A DNA stretch of 64,000 nt from Mobula hypostoma (taxonomy: Eukaryota), in assembly GCF_963921235.1 (NCBI RefSeq), contig NC_086097.1, forward strand, positions 13,392,001 to 13,456,000. Direction: 5' to 3'. A model generated the notes under the pieces. It saw only the letters and a program-made list of their open reading frames with translations, had not been told where the DNA came from and did not search any database. Made by a program: the position numbers and the translations under genes. Of this stretch, positions 2,771 through 62,904 are shown one piece after another (the stretch's first letter is position 1; the number at the start of each line of letters is the position of its first letter).

Positions 2771-2820
2771 ACACCAATAACAGGTTTTTTTTGGTATAAC
2801 ACATGTTGCTGTTACACACA

Positions 2821-3092
2821 AACACGAGGAAATCTGAAGATGCTGGAATTTCAAGCAACACACATAAAAGTTGCTGGTGAACGCAGCAGGCCAGGCAGCA
2901 TCTCTAGGAAGAGGTATAGACGATGTTTCAGGCTGAGACCCTTCATCAGGACTAACTGAAAAAAGAGATAGTAAGAGATTTGGAAGTTGGGGGGGGAGAT
3001 CCGAAAAGATGGGAGAAGACAGGAGGGGGAGGAATGGAGGCTAAGAGCTGGAAAGTTGATTGGCAAAAGGGATACAAGGCTGGAGAAGGAGA
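2821..3092 (-). mobile_element. PLE 3' tail fragment with degenerate hammerhead
   Basis: Closely similar to 33212-33440. Hammerhead core at about 2917-2955. Confidence 0.8.
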
Positions 3093-4399: not shown

Positions 4400-5450
4400 G
4401 GACATCGATATGGCGTTGGTACAGTCACCAACAAAGATGAGGTGACCTACAGAGAGGAAGTGGAAGAGCTTAGGCCTGCTGTCAGGGAAATGAACTCTTC
4501 CTCAATGTCAACAAGACAAATGAGATGGTTAATGGCTTCTGGAGAACTGGTACCACTCACACCCCTCTTTGCATCAGCAGCACGGTGGTGGAAACCAGGA
4601 GCAGCTCCAAACTCCTGGGACTGCACATCTTGCACAACCTCTCATGGTCTGAGAGCACATTCTACACATCAAGAAAACTCTGCTTTCTGAGGAGGCTTGC
4701 GAGAGCTGGGCTATGCATATCAATGCTTACTTCCTTCTACAGATACAATGGAGGAATCCTAACATACCACGTCACTGCATGGTGCGGAAACTGCACTGTG
4801 GCCGACAGGAATACTCTACAAAGGATAGTCAAGCCTGCTGAAAGCATCCCCAGCACCAGCCTATCCACCATTAAGGACATATATACAGAAAGGTGTGGGG
4901 AAAATGCCAGTAACATCATGAAGGATCCCACCCACCCTGCACATGAACTGTTAGTCCCACTTCCAACAGGAGGAGGCTACGTAGTGTCCACACCAGGATC
5001 ACCAGACTCAAAGACGGTTACTTTTCACAAACCTCCACCCACTGATCACCCTCTAAAACCCCACCGCCACTACCTTATCATTACCTGTCAGTTACCCTAT
5101 GAAAAGACACTCCTGTGCCTAATGTCACTTTATGAACATACAATTAATCTATATGTATAAGCTGTCACGAGGAAATCTGCAGATGCTGGAATTTCAAGCA
5201 ACACATATAAAAATTGCTGGTGAATGCAGCAGGCCAGGCAGCATCTATAGGAAGAGGTACAGTCGACGTTTCGGGCCGAGACCCAGCTGTCATATGTATT
5301 TACTGTACATTAATTTTTGTTATTATTGCATTCATTGTGGGGGTTTTTTTTGTACTGCATTGGATCCGGACTAACAATTATTTTGTTCTCCTTTACACTT
5401 GTATACTGGGAATGACATTAGGCAATCCTGAAACTTGGAACCTTGAATGA
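4400..5450 (+). mobile_element. Rex1/Babar-like LINE 3' part
   Basis: ORF 4525-5160 has KLLGLHI..LSW, FLRRL, ILTYHVTAWCGN and IMKDPTHPAHEL. The 3' UTR is interrupted at 5168-5284. Confidence 0.75.
5168..5284 (-). mobile_element. Very short PLE tail insertion with 8-bp TSD
   Basis: AGCTGTCA at 5160-5167 and 5285-5292. The insert matches the PLE 3' terminus and is truncated inside hammerhead stem II. Confidence 0.8.
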
Positions 5451-16211: not shown

Positions 16212-16395
16212 GCAGACATGTCTGAACGGGAGTGGGAATTGGAATTAAAATGTTTGGCTATTGGGAAGCCCCACTTGTGGCTGATGGTATGGAGGTGCTC
16301 GATGAAACAGCCCCCTATTTTGTGATGGGCCTCACCAATGTAGAGGAGTCTGCATCGAGAGCACCGGACACAAAAGATGACCCCAGCAAATCTGC
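16212..16395 (-). mobile_element. Old PLE GIY-YIG fragment
   Basis: Diverged homologue of 33730-33905 (LLYIGE..HFNS region). Confidence 0.7.
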
Positions 16396-20824: not shown

Positions 20825-21625
20825 TCGGAATCAGAATCAGGCTTAATATCACCAGTTTATGTTGTGAAATCGGTTGTTTTACAATAAGAAAATATAGAAT
20901 CATAGAGCTATAGAAACGTACAGCACAGAATCTGGTCTTTTGGCCTATCTAGTCCAGGCTGAGCCATTTAACCTGCCAAGTCCCTTTGACTAGGTATCAA
21001 TATATATGTAAACATTAAATTAAATATGTAGTGCCAAAAGAGAGCAAAAATAAATAGAGAGTTAGTTCACAAGGGCTCATTGTCCACTCAGAAATCTGAT
21101 GGCAGAGGGGAAGAAAATGTTTCTAAAATGATGAGTGTGTGCCTTCAGGAACTTGTACCTCCTTCTTAATAGCAGAAATGTGAAGAGGACATGTTCTGTT
21201 CCTGAATGGGTTTGTGTTGTCACGTGCAGTGAAAAGCTATTTGTTTGCCGTACGAAAGCAACATCCGCCATCAAAGATCCTCACCACCAGGGCCATGCTC
21301 TTTTCTCACTGCTGCCATCAGGTAGAAGGTACAGGTGCCTCAGGATTCGTTCCACCAAGTTCAGGAACAGTTACTACTCCTCAACCACCAGACTCTTAAA
21401 CAAAAGTTACACTCATCTAAGGATTCTTTTATTTTGTTATTTCATGCTCGCTATTTATTACTATTTATTTTTTTATCTGCATTTGCACAGTTTGTTCCCA
21501 AGGTTTACAGTTTACAGATCCTGTTTACAGTTACCGTTCTATAGATTTTCCAAGTATGCCTGCAGAAAATGAATCTCAGGGTTGTATGTGGTGACAAGTA
21601 TAATAAATTTTACTTCACTTCACTT
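20825..21625. mobile_element. Rex1/Babar-like 3' ends on both strands, with a short CR1 tail
   Basis: Minus: RRRYKFLKAHTHHFRNIFFPSAIRFL with a (GATTCT)n tail. Plus: IKDPHHQGHALFSLLPSGRRYR. Confidence 0.65.
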
Positions 21626-25730: not shown

Positions 25731-26158
25731 CACACTGCAAAAATACCAGATTGCACAGGTGGTTCAAAAGCTCAACTCTGAAAGGGAAGTTCCAGGCTAT
25801 TGATTGAAGTGATCATTTACCAGAGAAGTGTGATTAATACAATAGTTTTGTTTGTTTGTTTGTTTTGTTGGCAAGCAGTCACTGCCCTTCACCAACGCCA
25901 TCTTAAACCAGATCTTAAAACTTCCCCTCCACCATCAGATTTATGAATGAACAATGAATCCATCCATGTTACTCACTATTTTTGTTCTTTTTTTACACTA
26001 CTTATGTAGTTAATTTAAAATTTATATATATTTTCTCATTGCAATTTGTAGATTTTTAATGTTATGCATTGCAATGTACTGCTGCCGCAAAACAACGAAT
26101 TTCACGGCATATGCTAGTGATATTAAACCTGATTCTGATTCTGATTCAGAATACACAT

Positions 26159-26243
26159 GGCCTCGGCCCGAAACGTCGACTGTACCTCTTCCTAGAGATG
26201 CCGCCTGGCCTGCTGCGTTCACCAGCAACTTTGATGTGTGTTG
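26159..26243 (+). mobile_element. PLE tail fragment
   Basis: GGCCTCGGCCCGAAACGTCGACTGTACCTCTTCCTAGAGATG, the 3' half of the hammerhead plus the terminus. Confidence 0.8.
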
Positions 26244-26879
26244 TTTATATCCGGATACCTTGATAGGTTGTATAGAAATGCCTTGTGAAGGAAATGGCTC
26301 ACAGCTTAAGCCTCCTGTCACGTACAAATCAAAGATAGCACATACCGAGAAAGTGCTGCATTATCAGAGATGTTCATTTTTCAATGTAATGTAGGAGGGA
26401 GGAAAGTGACCTGGTTCTGCTATTGCTGCTACTTGTTGTGTGTGTGTTTTTTTGTGCTCTGTGTCACTCTGCCAAGGCCGAGGATTGTGGACATGCTAGG
26501 GCCAGCGCCTGAAAGTGTGGCAACACTTGTGGGCTGTTCCTAGCTCACCCTTGAGTACTTTAGTTGTTAATGCAAATGACAGATTTCACTGTACGTTTCG
26601 ATGTATGCATGATAAATAAATTAACATGAATCTTGAATCAAACCAAGGCCCAGTCTGCTCTCTCTTGTGAATATAAAAACCCCATTGGCACTATTTTATA
26701 AAAGAGCATTGATATTATCTTAAGTATCCTGACTAATATCTAACCCCTAACCAGCATATTGTAAATCAGATTAATAGTGCCATTGTTGTTCTGCTTGTAC
26801 CATGGTTGCAGTATGCAAATTAGCTGCCACATTTCAGGAGATCAGAAGCAGGAGCTGGTCACTTGGGTCCTCGTACCAG

Positions 26880-31913: not shown

Positions 31914-32156
31914 AGTGGCCTGTCCAGCTCTTGGCTCCATCTCTCCCCCTCCTGTCTTCTCCTATCATTTTGGATCTCCCCTCCCCCTCCCACTTTCAAA
32001 TCTCTTACTAACTCTTCCTTCAGTTAGTCCTGACGAAGGGTCTTGACCTGAAACATCGACTGTACCTCTTCCTAAAGATTCTACCTGGCCTGCTGCACTC
32101 ACCAGCAACTTTGATGTGCGCTGCTTGAATTTCCAGCATCTGCAGAATTCCTTTTG
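31914..32156 (+). mobile_element. PLE 3' tail fragment
   Basis: Matches 45775-46013. Hammerhead core at about 32025-32062 reads GAAACATC. Confidence 0.85.
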
Positions 32157-33211
32157 TATACGATCAGAAGTCAGTCTCAGATGTCTATTCAAGATTGAGG
32201 GGTAGTTAGTCGGTTTACAGTGGGAGGATTTGTGAAATGGCAACTATGTCAGGAGTTTGGAACTGGGAATCAGGACGGTTTCAGAACTAGGGATTCTACT
32301 GGGAGCCAGAGACTGGGACTTCATGCACTCTCTAAATTGGGAGGAAAACAGAAATGTGGATCAGAGTTTGTAATGGTGATTGGTTCAATTCATTTTCTGG
32401 CCTGGACTCAAGGGCAAGCAGTGAGAGCAATCTCTCATAGGAGTCCATTTTACCATAGGGTTAATAAACCATGGTCATTCCAGTCTGAGAACAGCCCATC
32501 TATTAAGAGTCGCTCTCAGAACAATTCTCTGTCCGATATTCCAAAAGGAATATTACACGTGAAGTGACATCATCAAAGTGAGTGTGAAAGAGAACCTGTC
32601 AAACTACTGGTGAAATGATAAATGTTTAACAAAAATATCTCAATTGCCATTTTGTTGCTCACAATTTAAATTTGGATCCAGTTGTGCAGAAAAATAGAAC
32701 AAAACCAATCTAATTTCTAAACTTTAGTCCAAAAAATAAAGATTAGGTTCTCCACATACATTCACAAATGATCATGAACAGCCCCTTGAAGAATAGATCA
32801 TAAGGAATAAATCATGAAGGGCCTTGAGCTTATTCTGCCACTCAGTGTGACTATGGACATCATAATCTTGGCTTCAAACTTCCTGCCCTTTCCCCTTGAT
32901 TTTTGATTCAAAGATCTATCCATCCCTACCCTGGACATATTCAGTGAAGCTGATTCTACCACACATCCACCCCTGAAGCAAAATCCTCTACTCATTAAGC
33001 AAGGTTATAGAATTAAAGAACACTGCAGAATAGAAACAGGACCTTTGGCCCATCTAATTAGTGCCAAACTATTATTCTACCAGCTCTCATTAACCTGCAT
33101 CTGGACCTTAGCCCTCCATAAATCTTCCATCCAGGTACTATCCAAACATCTACTAAATGTTTGAATAAAATCTACATCTACCACTCCCACTGGCAACTTG
33201 TTCCATACTCA

Positions 33212-34360
33212 AGCAACACACATCAAAGTTGCTGGTGAACGCAGCAGGCCAGGCAGCATCTCTAGGAAGAGGTACAGTCGACGTTTCAGGCCGAGGCCCT
33301 TCGTCAGGACTAACTGAAGGAAGGGTTAGTAAGAGATTTGAAAGTGGGAGGGGGAGGGGGAGATCCAAAATAATAGGAGAAGACAGGAGGGGGAGGGATG
33401 GAGCCAAGAGCTGGACAGGTGATTGGCAAAAGGGATATGAGAGGATCATGGGACAGGAAGTCCGGGAAGAAAGACGGGGGGGGGGGGGAACCAGAGGATG
33501 GGCAAGGGGTATAGTCAGAGGGACAGAGGGAGAAAAAGGAGAGTGAGAGAAAGAATGTGTGTATAAAAATAAATAACAGATGGGGTACGAGGGGGAGGTG
33601 GGGCATTAGCAGAAGTTAGAGAAGTCGATGTTCATGCCACCAGGTTGGAGGCTACCCAGACGGAATATAAGGTGTTGTTCCTCCAACCTGAGTGTGGCTT
33701 CATCTTTACAGTAGAGGAGGCCGTGGATAGACATGTCAGAATGGGAATGGGATGTGGAATTAAAATGTGTGGCCACTGGGAGATACTGCTTTCTCTGGCG
33801 GACAGAGCGTAGGTGTTCAGCAAAGCGGTCTCCCAGTCTGCGTCGGGTCTTGCCAATATATAGAAGCCCACATCGGGAGCACCGGACGCAGTATATCACC
33901 CCAGCCGACTCACAGGTGAAGTTTCGCCTCACCTGGAAGGACTGTTTGGGGCCCTGAATGGTGGTAAGGGAGGAAGTGTAAGGGCATGTGTAGCACTTGT
34001 TCCACTTACAAAGATAAGTGCCAGGAGGGAGATCAGTGGGGAGGGATGGGGGGGACGAATGGACAAGGGAGTTGTGTAGGGAGCGATCCCTGCAGAAAGC
34101 AGAGAGAGGTGGGGAGGGAAAGATGTGCTTAGTGGTGGGATCCCGTTGGAGGTGGCGGAAGTTACAGAGAATAATATGTTGGACCCGGAGGCTGGTGGAG
34201 TGGTAGGTGAGGACCAGGGGAACCCTATTCCTAGTGGGGTGGCGGGAGGATGGAGTGAGAGCAGATGTACGTGAAATGGGGGAGATGTGTTTGAGAGCAG
34301 AGTTGATAGTGGAGGAAGGGAAGCCCCTTTCTTTAAAAAAGGAGGACATCTCCCTCATCC
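33212..34360 (-). mobile_element. 5'-truncated Penelope-like element, GIY-YIG ORF 33606-about 34355
   Basis: C..KCYTC linker, VIYCVRCSRCGLLYIGKT..R..EH..HF..E..N GIY-YIG motifs, hammerhead in the 3' region, and short TSD TACTCA at 33206-33211 and 34361-34366. Confidence 0.92.
33275..33312 (-). ncRNA. Minimal type I hammerhead ribozyme
   Basis: Minus strand: TAGTC CTGACGA AGG-GCCTCGG-CCT GAAA C GTC GACTG. Confidence 0.8.
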
Positions 34361-34719
34361 TACTCACACCACCTCTGAGTGAAGAAATTCCCCCTTATGT
34401 CTCCTTAAACATTTCACCTTTCACCCGTAACCTATGAAGTCTTGTTCTAGTATCACTTAGCCTCAGTGAAAGAAGCCAGCTTGCATTTACCCACCAGTAC
34501 ATATTAGGCTCCTGTACATCTATGAGTAATCCTGTACTCAATACTTCGATTTATAGAGGTCAATGTGCCAGAATCTCTCTTTATGACTCTGTCTACCTGT
34601 AATGCCAATTAGGTTTACATTAATTTGGTAAGTAAATGGAAACTTGGGGCCTAAATATGAAGAGAGAATAGTTAAACTAGAAATAAAACATGTTTCAGGT
34701 GAGCTGGTGTTTATAAAAG

Positions 34720-37950: not shown

Positions 37951-40424
37951 TCAGGAGGGACAAGAGTCATCAGGAATGACAGCACAACCTGACGTTGGTG
38001 ACTGTAGAGGCTAATTCTGTATCTTCAAACTCTATCAGTAGGGATATAGGAACAACTGGGATGTGGCCACTTGGCTAGTAGGATCCCTCCTGCATCTCTG
38101 CTTCTGTTCAGATTCCTCAAAGTTCTTGGCTCTGCCTTTTGCAAATTTCTCCGGCGGGAGGAGAAGATGGCGGCACGACACAGCGCGCGCAGCTCTCTGG
38201 TGAAATGATATCGTATTTGTTAAATAGGGTACCGTGCACAATTCTGATTTGATGGAGACAGCCGTGAGAAGCATGGAGGAACATCTGGAGAAACTTCTGA
38301 AATGCCCAGTTCGCTGCCGCTACTACTGTGCAATCGAGAGTCTCCGGAGGGAAGACCCCAAAATCCTCGGCTTTACCTGCCGCTGGCGGCCGGGGCTGGG
38401 GTCGAAGTGCTCGGCAGAGATGGTGCTCGGTGTCAGAGTGCTGGTCGGAGGCTCGAAGTTTTCGGATGACTCAGAGTCGGACTGTGGTCGGGCATGGCAG
38501 GGAGAGTTTTCTTCCTTCTCCTGTCTGTGTGAGATGTGGGACTTTCGAGAGACTTTGAACTTTTTTTACCGTGCTCATGGCCTGTTCTTCATCAAGTTAT
38601 GGTATTGCTTGTACTGTTGTAGCTATATGTTATAATTATGTGGTTTTTGTCAGTTTTTCAGTCTTGGTCTGTCCTGTGTTTCTGTGATATCACACCGGAG
38701 GAATGTTGTATCATTTCTTAATGCATGCATTACTAAAAGACAATAAAAGAGGACTGCGTGTCCTCATCATCTAATCTAATCTCCATGGATCAGCGTTCTC
38801 CAGCAGCATCTGTCACAAGCCACCTGCTGCCACACATTGACCTTGATATTTGCCTGATAGAGCAGCTGCTTCAGTTGGTCTTTGTACCTCTTGCACGGGG
38901 CACCACGATCTCTCTTGCCCTGAGAGAGTTCTCCATAGAGTACTGCTTTCGGTAACCATGTTGTCCGTGTGAGACACGTGGCCTGGCCAGTGGAGCTGCT
39001 TGAGCAATAAAGTAGCTTCAATTATTTGGAAGTTGAGCCTCCTCCAGGATCTCGTTGTTGGAGACGTGATCCTGCCAGTTGATACTCATGATGGAGCGGA
39101 GGCAGCACTCGAGTGACCAGATTTGCTTATGGTACAAGACCCCGGTTTCAGAGCCAACTAGCATTGTTGTGACGACAGCGCCCTGTATTCCTGGATTTTT
39201 GTGGACAGACACAGCTGGTGATTCTTCCACACATTTCTGGAGGCAGACAAAGGCACTGCTAGCTCTGGCAAGTCGTTTGTCAACGTCCCTTACTACCACA
39301 GTGTAGTTGGAGATGATGCGCCCAGGTAATCCGAGGAGGGCTGTAAAAGCCAGAAGGGGGCTTCTGTTGGAAGACCGTTGTTTTTTTCAGACTGACCATT
39401 AACCCAGAAGTTCAGCAGCCTTGGGGAATTGTGATTGCAGCCTGTAGTACGTACTCTGCATGCGTGAGAAGAACACAGTCATCCATATATAGTAGCTCAA
39501 GAATGGGCTTTTGAACGGTTTTTGTTTGAGCGAGAGGCGGTGGAGGTTGAAGATATTTTGGTCAGTGCGGAACCAAATTTAGATGCTCTCCAAGGTGGTC
39601 TCCTTTGCTTCCCGTAGCATCCTGCTGAAAAAGATGGCAAAAAGCCAAAACAGAGCCTTGGTAATGCCTGTGTAGTTTGAGCAATCCACTTTCTCCCCTT
39701 TGCTCTTGTACAGAGAGACAATTACAGTGTCACATGTCATTTAGAACTGAACCTTCCCACCGACAGAGTGTGAACAGGTTTGTGAGTTTGCTCAGGAGAA
39801 TGTCTGCCCATTGTGCATGCTTCTGCTGGGATGCCATCAATGCATTTCAGCTTGGAAATAGTGGCTTTGACCTCGTCCGGAGTGGGTGGGCCATCAAGTT
39901 TAAGCCTGATCTCATGCTGGGGATCATTTCAATGGATGCTTCTTGTACTTGATGATTATCCCCAAAGAGGCTCTCGTAGTGCTCTGCCCATTGCTTCATG
40001 AAGGTTTCCTTGACTGTCAGCAGGCTGGAGACGTCGCATGAGTATAGAGGGGCTTGAATCTGACAAGTTGGACTATGCACTATGCGTAGCGATTTGTAGA
40101 GGGCCCAAGTGTTGCCAATGTCTGCATGGTGCTACATTTGTTCTGCTGGGAGGACTGTTCCTTCTGGGGCAGGTTCCGGATTTCAACATTGTTTTCATCA
40201 AACTAGTTCTTGTTTCTCCTTGATGAGTACCCATGTACCTCGACAGCCATATCTTGATGGCAGTCTTCAGGTGTTCCTATTTCTTTACTGTGTCGGAGTC
40301 ATTATTTGTGTTATTGCCGCCTTCCTGTCAGCTTGACCTCTTTCACTATCAAGGGATTTTTTCCCCACAGAATTGCTTCTCACTGGATGCTTTTTTTGGC
40401 TTTCACATCACTCTCTGTAAAATC
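37951..40424 (-). pseudogene. Degraded RTE/BovB-type LINE
   Basis: LPKAVLYGELSQGKRDRGAPCKRYKDQLK, RLARASSAF, catalytic ELLYMDD near 39480 and QWAEHYESLF. Many frameshifts. Confidence 0.85.
38153..38781 (+). mobile_element. CpG-rich non-autonomous retroposon, copy 1
   Basis: Starts GGAGGAGAAGATGGCGGC; ends AATAAAAGAGGACTGCGTGTCCTC plus (ATCTA)n. Inserted in the RTE. Confidence 0.8.
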
Positions 40425-42065: not shown

Positions 42066-42665
42066 AATTATGATTATGATTATGAAAACACGCAGTCCCC
42101 TTTTATTGTCATTTAGTAATGCATGCATTAAGAAATGATAAAAATGTTTTTCCAGAATAATATCATGAAAACTCATGACAAACCGACTTAACATATAGTT
42201 ACAACAGTGCAAAGCAATACCATAATTTGATAAGAACAGACCATGCAACAGTAAAAGTCTCAGAGTCACTCGAAAGTCCTATCATCTCACGCAGACGGTG
42301 AACCTCCAGCGCCGCCAACTTGCCGATGCAGCATCCTGGAAGCATACGACCACAGTCCGACTCCGAGTCCGTCCGAAAAACTCCGAGCCTCCGACCACCT
42401 ATTCGACACCGAGCACCGAGCACCGTCTCTGCCGAGCGTTTCGACCCCGGCCCCGGCAACAGGCGATACGCAAAGCTGAGGATTTGGAGCCTTCGTCTCC
42501 GGAGATTCTCGATCACACAGTAGCAGCGGCAACAAAGCAGGCATTTCAGAAGTTTCACCAGATGTTCCTCTGCGCTTTTTCACGGCTGTTCCCATCAAAT
42601 CCGGATTGATGCACGGCCCCCTAGTTACACATATCAATATTCATTTGTAACGGCTGCACACGCTG
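42066..42665 (-). mobile_element. CpG-rich non-autonomous retroposon, copy 2
   Basis: Reverse-complement match to 47310-47970; (ATAATC)n tail; slightly 5'-truncated. Confidence 0.8.
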
Positions 42666-42820
42666 ATTACTGTAATATTTAGTAATTTGCACCATTAGAG
42701 TAACACTTTGTGCTTGGGTTATAAAAATGCTGTTTACATATGATGGACAGTGTCATTCTTCCAGTTCTCATGCACAGATAGTGGCCAATTTGCAGAGAAT
42801 GTAACATAAGTTCTATAATA

Positions 42821-42886
42821 CAGTACTGTGCAAAAGTCTTAGGCACATGTATATAGCTGGGGTGCCTGAGACGTTGCAGAGTACTG
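42821..42886. mobile_element. Tc1-type mini-MITE
   Basis: TA-flanked inverted repeats CAGTACTGTGCAAAAGTCTTAGGCAC...GTGCCTGAGACGTTGCAGAGTACTG. Confidence 0.75.
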
Positions 42887-43159
42887 TATTTGTCAATGCA
42901 AAATGGACAGTGAGTTTGGAAATTGGTGGGAGCAAAGGATGTTGGGAATGACAAAGGTGGAATGCCGGGGGAAGAGTGTGGGACAGGTGGCAGAGAAAGA
43001 TAACCAGGGACGGGGTGGCATGGGTAAATTGAACTGAATTAAATAGGATTAGCCTGTCTCCATTCCTCCTGTGCTCCACAACCTGCACTTTTGTTCTTGC
43101 CACTTTGAGGGAGAGGGTGTTTTCTTGACACCACTGTGTCAGGATGATGACTTCTGGAT

Positions 43160-44493
43160 AGCATACGGCACATCTGGATAGCAGAAACAGGATCGGTCGA
43201 AGTCAACATGGATTTACGAAGGGGAAGTCGTGCTTGGCTTATCTTCTGGAATTTTTTGAGGATGTAACTATGAAAATGGACAAGGGGGAGCCAGTGGATG
43301 TAGAGTACCTGGACTTTCAGAAAGCCTTTGATAAAGTCCCACATAGGAGATTAGTGGGCAAAATTAGGGCACACGGTATTGGGGGCAGAGTACTGACATG
43401 GATTGAAAATTGGCTGGCTGACAGAAAACAAAGAGGAGCGATTAACGGGTCTCTTTCGGAATGGCAGGCGGTGACCAGTGGGGTACCGCAGGGTTCAGTG
43501 CTAGGACCGCAGCTGTTTACAATATATATTAATGACTTAGATGAGGAAATTAAAAGTAACGTTAGCAAATTTGCCGATGACATAAAGCTGGGTGGCAGTG
43601 TGAAATGTGCGGAGGATGTTATGAGAATGCAGGGTGACTTGGACAGGCTGGGTGAGTGGGCAGATGCATGGCAGATGCAGTTTAATGTGGATAAATGTGA
43701 GGTTATCCACTTTGGTGGTAAGAACAGGAAGGCAGATTATTATCTAAATGGAGTCAAGTTAGGAAAAGGGGAAGCACAACGAGATCTAAGTGTTCTTGTA
43801 CATCAGTCACTGAAAGCAAGCATGCAAGTACAGCAGGCTATGAAGAAAGCTAATGGCATGCTGGCCTTCATAACAAGGGGAATTGAGTACAAGAGCAAAG
43901 AGGTCCTTCTGCAGCTGTACAGGGCCCTGGTGAGACCACACCTGGAATACTGTGTGCAGTTTTGGTCTCCAAATTTGAGGAAGGACATTCTTGCTATTGA
44001 GTGAGTGCAGCATAGGTTCACAAGGTTAACTCCTGGGATGGCGGGACTGTCATATGTCAAAAGATTGGAGCAACTGGGCTTGTATACTCTGGAAATTAGG
44101 AGGCTGAGAGGGATCTTATTGAAACATATAAGATTATTAAGGGATTGGACATGCTGGAGGCAGGAAGCATGTTCCCGCTGATGGGTGAGTCCAGAACCAG
44201 AGGCCACAGTTTAAGAATAAGAGATAGGCCATTTAGAACGGAGTTGAGGAAAAACTTTTTCACCCAGAGAGTGGTGGATGTGTGGAATGCTCTGCCCCAG
44301 AAGGCTGTGGAGGCCAAGTCTCTGGATGCTTTCAAGAAAGAGATGGATAGAGCTCTTAAAGATAGCGGAATCAAAGGTTATGGGGATAAGGCAGGAACTG
44401 GATACTGATTGTGGATGATCAGCCATGATCACAGTGAATGGTGGTGCTGGTTCGAAGGGCCGAATGGTCTACTCCTGCACCTATTGTCTATTG
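43160..44493 (+). mobile_element. CR1 LINE, young 5'-truncated copy (RT frame 43234-44004)
   Basis: YLDFQKAFDKVPH, SGVPQGSVLGPQLF, KFADD and WQMQFNVDKC. Premature stop at 44004; (CTATTGT)n tail. Confidence 0.95.
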
Positions 44494-44927
44494 TTCTCTC
44501 TGTAGGCTGTATCGCTATTATTTGATATTAGGCCAATCAGTGTAGTATCATCAGCAAATTTAATTAGCACACTGGCACCGTGGCAACACAGTTATGGCTG
44601 TACAGCAAGTAAAGGAGGGGGCTTACGACACAGCCCTGAGGGGCACCTCTGTTGAGGTCTCAGACACACACAGCCCCTGAGACACAAAGCAGTGTCATTT
44701 GATTCCAAACAATTGGTTTATTACAGAATGTCTCTTTGTTGCTTCCAGTTCCCTCCTGTCTCCATTCCCCTTTTTCCCAACCATGATTCCCCTCTCCCTG
44801 CCTCCTTCCTACTCACAGTCTAAAATAGAGAGGCATATCAGAATCAGGATTACCATCATTCATATGAAACTCACATCAAAGTTGCTGGTGAACGCAGCAG
44901 GCCAAGCAGCATCTATAGGAAGAGGCG

Positions 44928-44965
44928 CAGTCGACGTTTCAGGCCGAGACCCTTCGTCAGGACTA
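44928..44965 (-). ncRNA. Minimal type I hammerhead ribozyme
   Basis: Minus strand: TAGTC CTGACGA AGG-GTCTCGG-CCT GAAA C GTC GACTG. Confidence 0.8.
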
Positions 44966-45880
44966 ACTGAAGGAAGAGTGAGTAAGGGATTTGAAAGCTG
45001 GAGGGGGAGAGCCAAAATGATAGGAGAAGACAGGAGGGGGAGGGATGGAGCCGAGAGCTGGACAGGTGATAGGCAGAAGGGGATACGAGAGGATCATGGG
45101 ACAGGAGGTCCGGGAAGAAAGACGGGGGGGGGGGTGACCCAGAGGATGGGCAAGAGGTATATTCAGAGGGACAGAGGGAGAAAAAGGAGAGTGAGAGAAA
45201 GAATGTGTGCATAAAAAAGAGTAACAGATGGGGTACGAGGGGGAGGTGAGGCCTAGCAGAAGTTAGAGAAGTCAATGTTCATGCCATCAGGTTGGAGGCT
45301 ACCCATACGGAATATAAGGTGTTGTTCCTCCAACCTGAGTGTGGTTTCATCTTTACAGTAGAGGAGGCCGTGGATAGACATGTCAGAATGGGAATGGGAT
45401 GTGGAGTTAAAATGTGTGGCCACTGGGAGATCCTGCTTTCTCTGGCGGACAGAGCGTAGATGTTCAGCGAAGCGGTCTCCCAGTCTGCGTCGGGTCTCAC
45501 CAATATATAAAAGGCCACATCGGGAGCACCGGACGCAGTATATCACCCCAGTCGACTCACAGGTGAAGTGATGCCTCACCTGGAAGGACTGTTTGGGGCC
45601 CTGAATGGTGGTAAGGGAGGAAGTGTAAGGGCATGTGTAGCACTTGTTCCGCTTACACGGATAAGTACCAGGAGGGAGATCAGTGGGGAGGGATGGGGGG
45701 GACGAATGGACAAGGGAGTTGTGTAGGGAGGGATCCTGTCCCATGATCCTCTCGTATCCCCTTCTGCCTATCACCTGTCCAGCTCTCGGCTCCATCCCTC
45801 CCCCTCCTGTCTTCTCCTATCATTTTGCATCTCCCCCTCCCCCTCCAGCTTTCAAATCCCTTACTCACTCTTCCTTCAGT

Positions 45881-45918
45881 TAGTCCTGACGAAGGGTCTC
45901 GGCCTGAAACGTCGACTG
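45881..45918 (+). ncRNA. Minimal type I hammerhead ribozyme
   Basis: TAGTC CTGACGA AGG-GTCTCGG-CCT GAAA C GTC GACTG. Predicted cleavage after C45913. Confidence 0.8.
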
Positions 45919-46077
45919 CGCCTCTTCCTATAGATGCTGCCTGGCCTGCTGCGTTCACCAGCAACTTTGATGTGTGTTGCTTGAATTTCCAGCATCTGCA
46001 GAATTCCTGTTGTATTCATATGAAACTTGTTTTTTTGCAGCTGTAGCAGCAGTACAGTGCAATACATAAAATTACTA

Positions 46078-46142
46078 CAGTGCTGTGGAAAAGTCTTAGC
46101 ACCCTAGCTATACATGTGTGCCTACGACTTTTGGCAGTACTG
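46078..46142. mobile_element. Tc1-type mini-MITE
   Basis: TA-flanked. Same TIRs as 42821-42886 with the spacer in opposite orientation. Confidence 0.7.
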
Positions 46143-46764
46143 TAGGTACCACCAGTTCATTTGTCAATAGATCTGTGGTCCCGGATAACGTGCTCATACA
46201 ACTCTCACATGTGAGCTACTTAAGGAATGCTGACTTGGTTTGTACTTATTTCTTCATTGATTTTCTTTGTAGAATCCTTTCTTCAAGCTAGACTACAAAT
46301 AAAGCCTTTCCCATTACAATGTTGGGGAAAGGGCACTCAATGGATGCAAGTAACTCAGCTTCAACCTTCTATTTAGAGCTGATGCTTTACCTGGCCTCTA
46401 TGTATTGGCCCAAACCCAATACGTCAGCCCAGATAGCAGGAACCTGCCACTGACAACCATGTGTCCTCACTACCCAGAGGTAATAGTTATCATTTTTTAA
46501 GAATGGTAGTTCCCAAACATCGCTGAGTGACTATTTGTCAGTGTATCAGAGAATTTAAGGTGCTACTAGACTAATTATGGTGGTTTAAGAAAACATTGAA
46601 TTTTCTAACTTCTAGTAAATTCCTTCCCTCTCTCTCCTCTCTTTTGCTATTCCCCATTTTGCTACCCCTTACCCTTTCTCTTCTCTTCATCTGTCACTGA
46701 TCACCTCACTTGGATACCCCTCCCTCTTCCCTTTTGCCCGTGGTCTAATCTCCTCTCCTATCAG

Positions 46765-48430: not shown

Positions 48431-48529
48431 TTTTTCCCTGATGGCAGCAGCGAGAAGAGGGCATGTCCTGGTTGGTGGGCCAAGTGGACCATGTCCTTCG
48501 TGGACTCAATGACATCATTCAGTGTCATT

Positions 48530-48657
48530 AACACAAGAGATTCTGTAGATGCTGGAAATCTTCAACAACACACAAAAAAAGCTAGAGCAAATCAGAGAGC
48601 ATTTATGGAGGGGAATAAACAGTCGACGTTTTAGGCTGAGACCTTTTATCAGGGCTT
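48530..48657 (-). mobile_element. PLE-derived tail repeat
   Basis: ACACAAGAGATTCTGTAGATGCTGG...CAGTCGACGTTTTAGGCTGAGACCTTTTATCAGG. Confidence 0.7.
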
Positions 48658-50350: not shown

Positions 50351-51084
50351 TGTACTGCATGAATCATGGATCTTGTACTGTTTGGTTTTCTGATGTTGAA
50401 TTTTTCAATTTATGGAGATTGTTCTGCATGGCTTACAAAAGCTATACTGTGTACTTCATAGAGGTTAGACAGGTTTGTTTATAGAAATAATACTATAATT
50501 TATGGACACTATACTGTGTGGTTTATTGAAGCTGTACTATTCTGTTAATATTGGAACTACTGTTTAATTTAGGAGCTTGCACCAAATATTTGATGGAGAT
50601 TGTATATCGCTGTTTATAGAGGTTGTGATATGTACTGTAGGTTCTGAAGGGTGTGGACTATGGATTTTATTCTCTGTTTTACATAGTTTGCACTGTTTAA
50701 TTGTTTGGGTGTTTGTACAGTTCAACTGATTGTTTGTACTTTGCCTTCCATGAAGATATGAGCATATTTATCAAGAACGCTGCATATGCAGGGCTCTTAG
50801 CATTGTCAATGATCCCTCCTATCAGTCCAACAATCTCTTTGACCCCTATCCTCAGACAGGAGGTACCATAGCATTAGAACAAGGACCATTAGAATGGAAA
50901 ACGGTATTTTCCTCAAGGATGTGCAGCTCCTGTACTTCCTGCCACCACCCAGGTCTCATCACGTACAGTATAAAGCGCCAATAGAGTTAACAACAGGAAT
51001 TCTGCAGATGCTGGAAATTCAAGCAACACACATCAAAGTTGCTGGTGAACGCAGCAGGCCGAGCAGCATCTATAGGAAGAGGCG

Positions 51085-51122
51085 CAGTCAACGTTTCAGG
51101 CCGAGACCCTTCGTCAGGACTA
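51085..51122 (-). ncRNA. Minimal hammerhead ribozyme (GUU cleavage triplet variant)
   Basis: Minus strand: TAGTC CTGACGA AGGGTCTCGGCCT GAAA C GTT GACTG. Confidence 0.7.
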
Positions 51123-52341
51123 ACTGAAGGAAGAGTGAGTAAGGGATTTGAAAGCTGGAGGGGGAGGGGGAGATGCAAAATGATAGGAGAAGACAGGAGG
51201 GGGAGGGATAAAGCCGAGAGCTGGACAGGTGATAGGCAAAAGGGGATACGAGAGGATCATGGGACAGGATGTCCGGGAAGAAAGACCGGGGGGGGTGACC
51301 CAGAGGATGGGCAAGAGGTATATTCAGAGGGACAGAGGGAGAAAAAGGAGAGTGAGAGAAAGAATGTGTGCATAAAAATGAGTAACAGATGGGGTACGAG
51401 GGGGAGGTGGGGCCTTAGCGGAAGTTAGAGAAGTCAATGTTCATGCCATCAGGTTGGAGGCTACCCAGACGGAATATAAGGTGTTGTTCCTCCAACCTGA
51501 GTGTGGCTTCATCTTTACAGTAGAGGAGGCCGTGGATAGACATATCAGAATGGGAATGGGATGTGGAATTAAAATGTGTGGCCACTGGGAGATCCTGCTT
51601 TCTCTGGCGGACAGAGCGTAGGTGTTCAGCAAAGCGGTCTCCCAGTCTGCGTCGGGTCTCGCCAATATATAGAAGGCCACATCGGGAGAACCGGACGCAG
51701 TATATCACCCCAGCCGACTCACAGGTGAAGTGTTGCCTCACCTGGAAGGACTGTTTGGGGCCCTGAATGGTGGTAAGGGAGGAAGTGTAAGGGCATGTGT
51801 AGCACTTGTTCTGCTTACACGGATAAGTGCCAGGAGAGAGATCAGTGGGGAGGGATGGGGGGGACGAATGGACAAGGGAGTTGTGTAGGGAGCGATCCCT
51901 GCAGAAAGCAGAGAGGGGGGGGAGGGAAAGATGTGCTTAGTGGTGGGATCCCGTTGGAGGTGGCGGAAGTTACGGAGAATAATATGTTGGACCCGGAGGC
52001 TGGTGGGGTCGTAGGTGAGGACCAGTTGTGAGAACATTTCAATGATAGGCCCCACCTCCCCCTCGTACCCCATCTGTTACTCATTTTTATGCACACATTC
52101 TTTCTCTCACTCTCCTTTTTCTCCCTCTGTCCCTCTGAATATACCTCTTGCCCATCCTCTGGGTCACCCCCCCCCCCCGTCTTTCTTCCCGGACCTCCTG
52201 TCCCATGATCCTCTAGTATCCCTTTTGCCAATCACCTGTCCAGCTCTCGGCTCTATCCCTCCCCCTCCTGTCTTCTCCTATCATTTTGCATCTCCCCCTC
52301 TCCCTCCAGCTTTCAAATCCCTTACTCACTCTTCCTTCAGT

Positions 52342-52379
52342 TAGTCCTGACGAAGGGTCTCGGCCTGAAACGTCGACTG
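52342..52379 (+). ncRNA. Minimal type I hammerhead ribozyme
   Basis: Identical to 45881-45918. Confidence 0.8.
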
Positions 52380-52797
52380 CGCCTCTTCCTATAGATGCTG
52401 CTTGGCCTGCTGCGTTCACCAGCAACTTTGATGTGTGTTGCCAATAGAGTTAGACTATTTACTCTTTAACTTGTGTCATACATGCATCCTAAATATCAAT
52501 CCTATGGAATATGTTTTATTCTTTGTTAAATTATTTGTGGTAATATTACTTTAGGTGTTGTGCGTGTGTTGTGCACCTCGGACAGGTTTGGCGGTATGGT
52601 AGGTTTACTGGTCATTGTAAATGGTCTGGTGATTAGACGAGGGGTGAATTGAGGGTTGCCAGCTGCCGTGGCTGGAAGGACTGCAAAGACCTATTTCATG
52701 CTGTATCACAATAAATAAATAAATGAATAAGAATACGACTGAATGGCATTAAACTTCAGTGGTTTAATGGTTCAATTTAATATCAGAGAAGGTATAT

Positions 52798-53930
52798 TAG
52801 AATCAGAATCAGGTTTATTATCACCGGCATGTGATGTGAAATTTGTTAACTTAGCAGCAGCAGTTCAATGCAATACATAATACAGAAGAAGAAAACCCAC
52901 AACATAAAATAATAATAATAATTAATAAATAAGTAAATCAGTTACTGTATACATATGTTGAATTGATTAAAAATCATGCAAAAAATAGAAATAGTATATT
53001 TAAAAAAACAAGGTAGTGTCCAAAGATTCAATGTCCATTTAGGAATCGGATGGCAGAGGGGAAGAAGCTGTTCCTGAATCACTGAGTGGGTGCCTTCAGG
53101 CTTCTGTACCTCCTACCCGATGGTAACAGTGAGAAAAGGGCATGCCCTGGGTGCTGGGGGTCCTTAATAATTGACGCTGCCTTTCTGAGACACCGCTCCT
53201 TGAAGATGTCCTGGGTACTTTGTAGGCTAGTACCCAAGATGTAACTGACTAGATTTACAACCCTCTGCAGCTTCTTTCAGTCCTGTGCAGTAGCTACTCC
53301 CCCCTCCCCACCCCATACCAGACAGTGATGCAGTCTGTCAGAATGCTCTCCACAGTACATCTATAGAAGTTTTTGAGTGTATTTGTTGACACACCAAATC
53401 TCTTCAAACTCCAAGTCGCTGTCTTGTCTTCTTTTTAACTGCATCGATATGTTGGGACCAGATTAGATCCTCAGAGATCTCAACACCCAGGAACTTGAAA
53501 CTGCTCACTCTCTCCACTTCTGATCCCTCTATGAGGATTGGTATGTGTTCCTTCGTCTTACCCTTCCTGAAGTCCACAATCAGCTCTTTCGTCTTACTGA
53601 CGTTGAGTGCCAGGTTGTTGACTAAATTTACAACCTTCTGCAGCTTCTTTCTGTCTTGTGCAGTAGCCCCTCCATACCAGACAGTGATGCAGCCCGTCAG
53701 AATGCTCTCCATGGTACAACTATAGAAGTTTTTGAGTGTATTTGTTGTCATGTAAAATCTCTTCAAACTTCTCATAATGTATAGCCTCTGTTTTGCCTCC
53801 TTTATAACTACATCGATATGTTGGGACCAGGTTAGATCCTCAGAGATCTCAACACCCAGGAATTTGAAACTGTTCACTGTCTCCACTTCTGATCCCTCTA
53901 TGAGGATTGGTATGTGTTCCTTCGTCTTAG
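52798..53930 (-). mobile_element. Rex1/Babar-like LINE 3' part with internal duplication
   Basis: ORF 53404-53886 contains SFKFLGVEISEDL.WSQHID twice; (GATTCT)n tail at 52798-52812. Confidence 0.85.
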
Positions 53931-55204: not shown

Positions 55205-55672
55205 CCCATAATCAGGTTGGAGGAGGCGCCCGTCATATTCCATCTGGGTAGCCTTCAACCTAATGGCATGAACATTGATTTCTCTAACTTTTGGTAACTG
55301 CCCCACCCCCCCTTCACCACTCACTATTCCTGCTTCCCTCTCTCACCTTATCTCCTTACCTACCCGTCACCACCCTCTGATCCTCCTTGCCCTTCCCTTT
55401 CTTCCCTGTCTTCCATCCTGTCCTATCAGATTCCCCTTTCTCCAGCCCTTTATCTCTTTCATCAATCACCTTCCCAGCACGTTACTTCCCCCCCCCACAT
55501 ATCACCTACCGTCTTGTACTTTTTCCTCCCCTCCCCCACCTACTTACTCTAACTTTTCTCCTTCCTTTTCAGTCCTGATGAAGGGTCTCAGCCCAAATAA
55601 TGACTGTTTACTCTTTTCTATTGATGCTACCTGACCTGCTGAGCTCCTCCAGTATCTTGTGTGTGCTGCTTA
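55205..55672 (+). mobile_element. Older PLE 3' end
   Basis: RLEEAPVIFHLGSLQPNGMNIDFSNF followed by a pyrimidine-rich UTR and a decayed hammerhead at 55570-55607. Confidence 0.8.
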
Positions 55673-57164
55673 AAGAGAATCTATCCACCAGTCTTGGTTG
55701 CTGCTTGAGATTTTGAACATATTTCCCCAGTGCACCAGATTAATCTTTGATAATCTGTTTTATCATTCAACAATGTGAGAAAATAAGGAAGATTTGATTG
55801 TTGGTGTTTGTGGGAGCTCACAATGCACAAATTATGTGAAATGTTACCTAAACCACAGCTGCAATGACACTTCAAAAATACTACATTATTTTAAAGTGCT
55901 TTGGAAAATTATGAAAGGCACTATGGAAATGCAAGATTTTTGTTACGTTGTAATGTGCATGTTATAATGTGCACTTAATAATTGTTGAATTTTGTAATTT
56001 ATATTGGTTGTAGCTGTGCTTTTATTGGAAAGTTTATACAAACAGAATCATTTTTTCACACTGTAGTTGTTTTTACGCAATTCAGAATCAGGCTTAATAT
56101 CATTGGCATATATTGTGGAATTTGCTGTTTTGTGGCAGCAGTGCAAAGTTCAAAGTTCAAAGTACATTTATTATCAGAGTGATGATACTTTACACAACCT
56201 TGAGATTTGTTTCCTTACAGGCAGCCACAAAACAAAGAAACTCAAAAGGACCCATTAAAACAAACAAAGATTCTCAAACACCCATTGTGCAGAGAGAAAA
56301 GAAACTAATTGTGCAAACAATAAAGTAAGCAAATAGCACTGAGAAACAAAGTTTATGGAAGTGAGTTATTTGCAGGCTGTAGCCTCAGTTCAGTGCAGAG
56401 ACATCATGGAACAGAGAGCTGAACACGGGCCCATGCTCGCCTCCATACATGAAAATTGAGAAAATCTAGAAATTGCAATAAGAAGTGTATTTGAAAAAAG
56501 GAAATTTAAATTAAATAAGTAGAAATTAAATTAAATAAGTAAAAAGAGGGGGAAAATTGCTGAGGTGGTGTTCATAGGTTCAGTGTTCATTCAGAAATCT
56601 GATGACAGAGGGGTAGCAGCTGTTCCTGAAATGTTGAGTGTGTGCCTTCAAGCTCCTTTATTGAGAAATATGAAGTTTTGCTGTAAATTGTAACATTTTC
56701 ACTCGCTCTACTACGCAGTCGATGTGCTTATGTTGTGCTGTTTGTGGCTGTACTGTATGGTTTATGAAGGGTGTATTTGTTAGCTCAAAGCTAACTTACT
56801 TTCCAGTATATTATACCTATTTAGAATCATATTTTAGTAATTTTAGTAATTTATGGTAGATGCATTGAACAGTTTGGAGCAGTTAAAGAGCATAACAGCC
56901 ATTGGTGGAACTGAGTAGTCGTCTATTGTTTTTTTTATTGCATGGACAATTATAGTGATTGTAAACTGTAATTATTGTGCTTGATAATTTATGGCAATCA
57001 TGATGGGTATCTTTCATCACTCAATAGGTTTTAATTTATTTATTTTTCAGGACCTGGGCTTTACTAACAATGTCAGTATTTATTACCAATTCCCAGTTGC
57101 TGTCGAGAAAACAGTGATGAGCTGCTTTCTTAAGCCATTGCTGTCCTTCTGGTGAAGGCAAGCC

Positions 57165-62059: not shown

Positions 62060-62182
62060 GAGGGGTCTTGGCCTGAGCAATCGACTGTTTATTCATTTCC
62101 ATAGATGCTGCCTGACCTGCTGAGTTCCTCTAGCACTTTGTGTGCGTTGCTCTGGATTTCCAGATTCTGCAGATTTTCTAAT
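62060..62182 (+). mobile_element. PLE-derived tail repeat, decayed
   Basis: GGGGTCTTGGCCTGAGCAATCGACTG...ATAGATGCTGCCTGACCTGCTGAG. Confidence 0.7.
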
Positions 62183-62904
62183 GTTTATTGCATATTAATT
62201 TTACTGAATCATTACCCATGAAAACAGGGAACAATTTAAGTGGTTCTGCCTGTTCAGTTGTTCAGTTCATCATTGAAACACTGAATGGATTAAATTGATT
62301 GTAAATGATATAGGTCACTTCATAAAGGAGGTGGCAAGGTGGCAAGGTGGCATAGACCACCAGGTTCAAAGACAGTTACCTTCCCCAAGCAGTGAGGCTG
62401 ATCAACACCTCCACCCACTAACTCCATCTCGCTGACACTACTTTATCATTCCCTGTCAGTCACCCGATGGACAGACATTCCTGTATCTGGTATCACTTCA
62501 TGGACAATCCGTTGATGTATATAAGCTATTTTCTGTATTTATTGCATTTTTAAAATTATTATTATTGTGTTCTTTTTCTGATTGTGATATTGTGTTCCAT
62601 CAGACCATTATTTTGTTCTCCTTTCCCCTTGAGCGCTGGAAATGGCATTAAAAAATCTTGGAAGCTTAAAATCTTTTTAAAGACAATACCAAAGACAATA
62701 CTTCTACCAATATCTTACAGTGGTCACACTGCAAAATGGACATAGGTGTACTGTGATGTTAATGCTGGTCTATAATGTAACTTGTTGAGATTTTTCTGTG
62801 TTATTTATAATAGTTGTAAAGGTTGGTTTGTAGCATTGTTCTGTACATGTTATGATGTTTGTCCCAAGCAGTTTACAATGATTGTGTTATCTATTTATTC
62901 ATTA

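Follow-up and report, generated by a model that had tools for sequence, protein, structure and literature searches.

The insertion at 44858..46027, termed E1 here, is a clean and real instance of a well-described PLE architecture, with two inverted arms, 3' ends outward, inside one exact 14-bp TSD. The best explanation, which we hold to be probable, is one retrotransposition event in which both nicked target strands primed reverse transcription and the two cDNAs were joined. The pattern was found again in a sibling insertion, E2.

Anatomy and target site of E1

The left (44858..44871, plus strand) and right (46014..46027, plus strand) TSD copies were identified as an exact repeat, ATTCATATGAAACT, which occurred twice in the whole window (the 64-kb stretch of DNA that was analysed), both times at the ends of E1. 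When 2000 position pairs were drawn at random with the E1 spacing and 25-nt slack, and 7 draws overlapping the E1 locus itself were dropped, the longest exact repeat in the remaining 1993 pairs was 11 nt, confirming the 14-bp TSD that the first-pass annotation had placed at both ends. Copy alignment revealed a long arm (44872..45736, minus strand; 865 nt) from a 5'-truncated, tail-less PLE, assigned below to the Neptune type, which was 95.8% identical to the copy at 51025-51898 and 93.5% identical to that at 33215-34089. The short arm (45734..46013, plus strand; 280 nt) was tailed and contained 3' UTR/pLTR only. The two arms were inverted copies of each other with 95.9% identity over 245 columns, as had been claimed, and differed by substitutions and one indel. 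They met head to head at the annotated TCC microhomology (45734..45736), which fitted both arms when judged against the family sequence of the copy at 50990-52025. The long arm ended at the base equivalent to 45974, and the roughly 40 nt of terminus that it was said to lack measured 39 nt in the arm comparison; these 39 nt (45975..46013, plus strand) were exclusive to the short arm and comprised the optional PLE tail. The description of the short-arm end as the complete terminus did not hold. Position 46013 is a preferred family end, and loose contig ends there continued with a weak TTGCG-like consensus (273 contigs of run X1; agreement 0.45), which agrees with internal initiation.

No poly(A) was seen when the E1 sequence was inspected. 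In L1 twin priming, cDNAs primed at the two target nicks are linked by microhomology or filler inside a single TSD; the arms derive from separate stretches of one RNA without overlap, the 3' end is poly(A), and the nuclease is APE. By contrast, E1 copied the same 245 nt twice, so this distinction from L1, already drawn in the annotation, was sustained, and it has a GIY-YIG nuclease and no poly(A). E1 works like twin priming but not in its L1 form, all three L1 traits being absent.

The E1 flanks adjoined each other in a single older host repeat: the left matched 26139-26108 and the right 26104-26057. This repeat was uninterrupted at 26139-26057 and 52802-52880, with the same flank order at both; as paralogous copies rather than an orthologous allele, these may serve as stand-ins for the empty site. 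Since one exact TSD encloses both arms and the flanks adjoin in uninterrupted host repeat, a single insertion is indicated. The dispersed host repeat, into which E1 inserted, starts with AGAATC-type units and was found at 44837-44871, 46021-46074, 26057-26139, 52802-52880, 20830-20851 and 56082-56111; another PLE fragment lay 20 nt from the copy at 26139. The right flank also held an element of about 70 nt that has terminal inverted repeats and looks like a miniature DNA transposon (46076-46144, and again at 42816-42888). Elsewhere in the neighborhood were a non-LTR reverse transcriptase fragment (43162-44408, plus strand; Pfam RVT_1, E 2.9e-25), which was broken by a stop and a frame change and which looks CR1-like, and an inverted repeat pair of 74% identity (38203-38780 and 42067-42646).

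Contig support was checked in 4 of the 23 listed runs on 45107-46560, a stretch that excludes the left flank. Among the contig pieces listed for these runs and positions, none crossed 45734 or the TSD, and right-flank contigs began beyond the TSD, at 46058 in X1 (0/503 differences) and at 46069 in X5, a run from the close relative (10/492 differences). The listed pieces thus gave two-strand priming neither junction nor empty-allele support, and they likewise left the E1 junction unconfirmed against an assembly artefact, i.e. a mis-joined inverted repeat. However, such an artefact deserves next to no credence, because the arms are not identical in sequence, the TSD copies match exactly and E2, an independent case, is found at a distance of 5 kb.

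Family assignment and published layouts

The C-terminal part of a PLE ORF with its stop codon, comprising a linker and a GIY-YIG endonuclease, was located at 45253..45736 (minus strand; ORF and Pfam), and the sister copy showed the upstream continuation of the ORF. Translation revealed the linker CKRNKCYTC (45631..45657, minus strand), a CX4CxxC motif diagnostic of Neptune/Nematis, and a GIY-YIG core with two internal cysteines, GVIYCVRCSRCGLLYIG (45499..45549, minus strand; Pfam and translation). The Pfam PF01541 score of the long arm was 21.4 bits (E 3.1e-4), just below the 22.6 cut-off, and that of the sister copy was 23.1 bits, above it, in support of the GIY-YIG domain annotated in the long arm. 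The ORF ended after this domain, and the endonuclease is C-terminal. For the CCHH motif, the two cysteines between GIY and YIG were present, and the downstream histidines are candidates by inspection. Neptune and Nematis are recognized by a CX2-5CxxC linker that precedes a C-terminal GIY-YIG, and the motif itself is common to Neptune, Nematis and Naiad (PMC8557442). Naiad identity was ruled out by the C-terminal position. The three longest copies in the window were truncated below the RT core, so that the placement between Neptune and Nematis is a motif-based one.

A hammerhead core was detected by motif scan in the long arm (44936..44960, minus strand). In the short arm, motif scan and dimer fold predicted a minimal type I hammerhead motif with a palindromic helix III (45881..45918, plus strand) and a cut after 45913; its stem I and helix III were read from inspection and the dimer fold. 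The core motif was present in 7 family arms, and minimal hammerheads of this kind have been described in PLE pLTRs (PMC4209133). The Rfam search returned no hammerhead match, its single match being compositional, to the Hsp83 3' UTR, and far below the gathering score; folding of the pLTR end was no better than that of shuffles (z -0.35). By its motifs, the CX4CxxC linker and the minimal hammerhead, the E1 element classifies as a Neptune-type PLE. The family is a very abundant one, with 231,158 X1 contigs aligned on 1454 bases; this figure counts contigs and gives no copy number.

All layout traits of EN+ PLEs were observed, namely an inverted 5'-truncated copy, an optional 30-40-bp tail and a variable TSD. 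A typical PLE has an adjacent inverted pLTR and may carry a 31-bp tail at one of its inverted ends, all within a 9-bp TSD (PMC3846280); an inverted 5'-truncated copy with a one-sided 30-40-bp tail is the standard arrangement in PMC8557442, which terms its origin undefined, and inverted terminal repeats are the commonest form of D. virilis Penelope (PMC2377424). E1 and E2 resembled these elements (Pen2a_Av in PMC3846280; Fig. 2 of PMC8557442; Penelope form C in PMC2377424) in their head-to-head order with 3' ends outward, and in having a 30-40-bp tail at one end and one TSD, although the TSD is 9-10 bp there and 13-14 bp in E1 and E2. Unlike the typical form as these sources present it, both arms were 5'-truncated and had no direct pLTR tandem, and the junction was a 3-nt microhomology (E1) or a 21-nt filler (E2) instead of a clean palindrome. 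The comparison of arm haplotypes (below) likewise sets E1 and E2 apart from the PLE descriptions in these texts. The first-pass annotation had considered inverted PLE ends known in general but E1 a clean mechanistic record; the insertion is clean and its kind known, but its layout is the typical published arrangement.

The 39 nt exclusive to the short arm bear on self-priming, in which one cDNA or antisense RNA folds at a palindrome and is copied into an inverted arm. Self-priming on an antisense template was proposed for head-to-head PLE inversions in the Discussion of PMC3846280, and the sequence at the E1 junction can fold weakly into a hairpin (-7.9 kcal/mol over 23 nt), as in our reading is expected where a GA-rich strand abuts a CT-rich one. 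However, a fold-back copy of the long-arm cDNA cannot contain 39 nt that this cDNA lacks, excluding simple cDNA fold-back for E1, and the reverse route fails as the short arm cannot template a longer one. Fold-back is also at odds with the filler of E2 and the different alleles in its two arms. A variant on antisense RNA from a tandem source is compatible with E1, and we regard self-priming overall as quite unlikely.

The sibling insertion and allele differences between arms

E2 (50977..52452; copy alignment and TSD) is a twin-arm insertion of the same family, independent of E1 and 5 kb from it. Exact-repeat comparison identified a 13-bp TSD (50977-50989 and 52440-52452), and copy alignment a tailed long arm (50990-52025, minus strand), a 21-nt junction filler (52026-52046) and a tail-less short arm (52047-52439, plus strand). 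Seven insertions in the window with a match of at least 84% over at least 80 nt were compared, leaving out about ten shorter or older fragments; two of the seven, E1 and E2, were twin-armed, and their junctions, TSDs and arm lengths all differed. Each had one tailed and one tail-less end. The tail was on the short arm in E1 and on the long arm in E2, showing that it can occupy either arm, and the filler of E2 shows that microhomology is not obligatory at the junction. The filler may be a sign of host end-joining. A local template for it had no significant support: 18 of its 21 nt lay in local 5-mers, a level matched by 700/20000 shuffles and 2783/20000 random 21-mers from the window.

The tailed ends of E1-short, E2-long and a third insertion, E4, had an identical stop base. 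The three mapped tail-less ends scattered (equivalents of 45974, 45978 and 45981), with 2-3 matches between the target 3' end and the element, the E1 match lying one base inside the end (n = 3). Both outer ends of E1 lay within the two end zones where single-arm copies stop as well. The TSDs of E3 (6 bp) and E6 (8 bp) were inside the null range, and none was found when E4, E5 and E7 were searched. The copies at 31919-32159 and 33209-34360 were rejected as a twin pair due to their tail-to-tail orientation. The longest single-arm copy (33206-34366, minus strand; about 1150 nt) was tail-less and open for 250 codons, with a 6-bp TSD candidate that overlapped the element end by 3 nt. At 5160-5292 (minus strand), an older subfamily was represented by a short copy with a tail and an 8-bp candidate TSD; further copies lay at 2820-3078, 26159-26246 and 31919-32159. 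Older related PLE families were represented by diverged fragments (about 69-80% where aligned) at 46592-46763, 55206-55315, 55528-55674, 62060-62198, 48527-48656 and 16214-16386.

These ends and junctions speak to whether an already inverted intermediate, from a source locus or extrachromosomal cDNA, was integrated whole and trimmed by a nuclease to leave a one-sided tail. The tail was attributed to nuclease resolution of an intermediate in PMC8557442, but was later mapped to two RT start sites (PMC11167929). Three of the 15 contig joints listed paired long-arm with short-arm positions (45134-45759, 45448-45964 and 45535-45959), a weak sign of other head-to-head inversions; their depth of about 3-10x the single-copy flank could point to amplification of inverted junctions, but their sides of 23-29 nt are in a range flagged as unreliable. 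Such an intermediate would also account for differing arm alleles. On the other hand, the junctions of E1 and E2 are unrelated, and both outer ends lie at positions used by single-arm copies; we consider integration of a pre-inverted intermediate unlikely. Some contig joints (e.g., 45509-45607 in X1) were at a depth several times that of the single-copy flank, as if derivatives with internal deletions or rearrangements had undergone amplification of their own.

The four young arms of E1 and E2 were separated from older copies by 11 of 224 aligned columns, picked post hoc after inspection of the alignment. At two of these columns E2-short matched the older state, by a 1-nt gap and by a T-to-A change, both also found in E3 and E5; E1-short did so at one column, in agreement with five older copies. 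These 3 discordant cells of 44 compare with 0.12-0.36 expected from a private change rate of about 0.8% per cell (P 3e-4 to 6e-3). A fourth discordant cell, E1-long at the indel, was ambiguous in alignment and may be the G allele seen in 71% of X1 depth at 45828. The signal came mainly from E2, since E1 alone, with one clean cell, was not significant (P 0.09-0.17). The two arms of each pair had a private allele in common (columns 196 and 226), indicating closely related templates. From this hint at two loci, the arms of E1 and E2 were probably copied from two templates, and the alleles are equally consistent with a pair of related RNAs and with two pLTR units on the same transcript. Gene conversion in short tracts, from other members of this very large family, could produce a similar discordance.

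If both strands had been primed on the same pLTR of a single RNA, with the second cDNA displacing the first and differences arising after insertion, the tailed end, the start 30-40 nt upstream and the private alleles common to both arms would all be accounted for. However, two reversions in E2-short and one in E1-short would be required unless gene conversion supplied the older alleles, making this highly improbable. The abundance of the family and the differing diagnostic alleles could also reflect two separate events, i.e. a second copy inserted into or beside the first, or an inverted arm built by later recombination or conversion. Against this, a single exact TSD spans both arms with none noticed at the junction, the arms of one insertion have private alleles in common, the E1 arms are 3/234 substitutions apart compared with 6-7 to the E2 arms, and the pattern recurs at E2. 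Two events are therefore very unlikely.

Priming from both nicked strands

The plus strand read antisense inward from the left TSD, and the minus strand antisense inward from the right TSD, which would fit cDNAs primed at nicks 14 nt apart with 3' overhangs. Counted from the predicted ribozyme cut, the outer ends of E1 were 61 and 100 nt downstream, suggesting starts that were internal and not at the RNA 3' end, as in the anole element. In vitro, purified Poseidon PAc from Anolis carolinensis nicks and extends both strands of AT-rich DNA. It initiates internally at two points beyond the hammerhead, and the tail corresponds to the stretch that separates them. The protein, modelled as a dimer, uses uncleaved RNA; inverted insertions are not a topic of that work (PMC11167929). 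Priming on both strands with joining of the cDNAs, as the annotation had proposed, fits the geometry of E1 and these PLE data, but its placing of the priming near the RNA 3' end was not borne out by the distances from the cut and the internal starts of PAc. E1 shares with PAc an AT-rich target, both-strand activity, two starts past the hammerhead and a tail equal to the gap between them. Unlike E1 with its CX4CxxC motif, PAc has no CX2-5CxxC linker, and its hammerhead overlaps the ORF start, whereas by inspection the E1 tail has no open frame through it; PAc is a Poseidon-clade protein with no reported strand difference in start site, which is a counterpoint to its use as a model (PMC11167929).

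We infer the following order of events. The GIY-YIG nuclease would make one nick per strand, 14 nt apart, in an AT-rich site, with the 3' overhangs implied by the TSD as the result, and each 3'-OH would prime reverse transcription in the internal start region past the hammerhead. From the 3' end of the bottom strand, at the right TSD, the short-arm cDNA would start at the distal, tailed site; from that of the top strand, at the left TSD, the long-arm cDNA would start 39 nt upstream of that site, perhaps aided by a few primer-RNA pairs. The two cDNAs, 280 and 865 nt, would run toward each other and be joined at their 3' ends via TCC, presumably by end-joining. Each would then be the template for the second strand of the other, by which the 14 bp would be duplicated. 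Their two templates were probably non-identical, whether these were separate RNAs or pLTR units within a single read-through transcript.

A search of titles and abstract openings found no paper deriving PLE inversions from two-strand priming, though PLE reviews of 2005-2006 may hold such a model; the available parts of PMC9977147 and bioRxiv 10.64898/2026.07.22.740005 added nothing on inverted ends. The formation of PLE inverted repeats is still listed as open in PMC8557442, and self-priming was the printed explanation found (PMC3846280). The structure of E1 itself is no surprise to a PLE specialist and is of modest mechanistic value; the new part is limited to a geometry that rules out simple fold-back and a two-locus hint of different templates. 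Together, E1 and E2 suggest a cheap genome-wide test, based on arm haplotype discordance and tail placement in twin-arm insertions. As a tentative extension, possible but speculative, PLE inverted repeats may be the product of a two-RT complex that extends each nicked strand on a different RNA: on one strand from a fixed start at the tail site that needs no homology, on the other from a start 30-40 nt upstream that is aided by microhomology. If so, each twin-arm insertion would combine two source templates, and a genome with many thousands of copies would preserve an extensive natural archive of such recombination.
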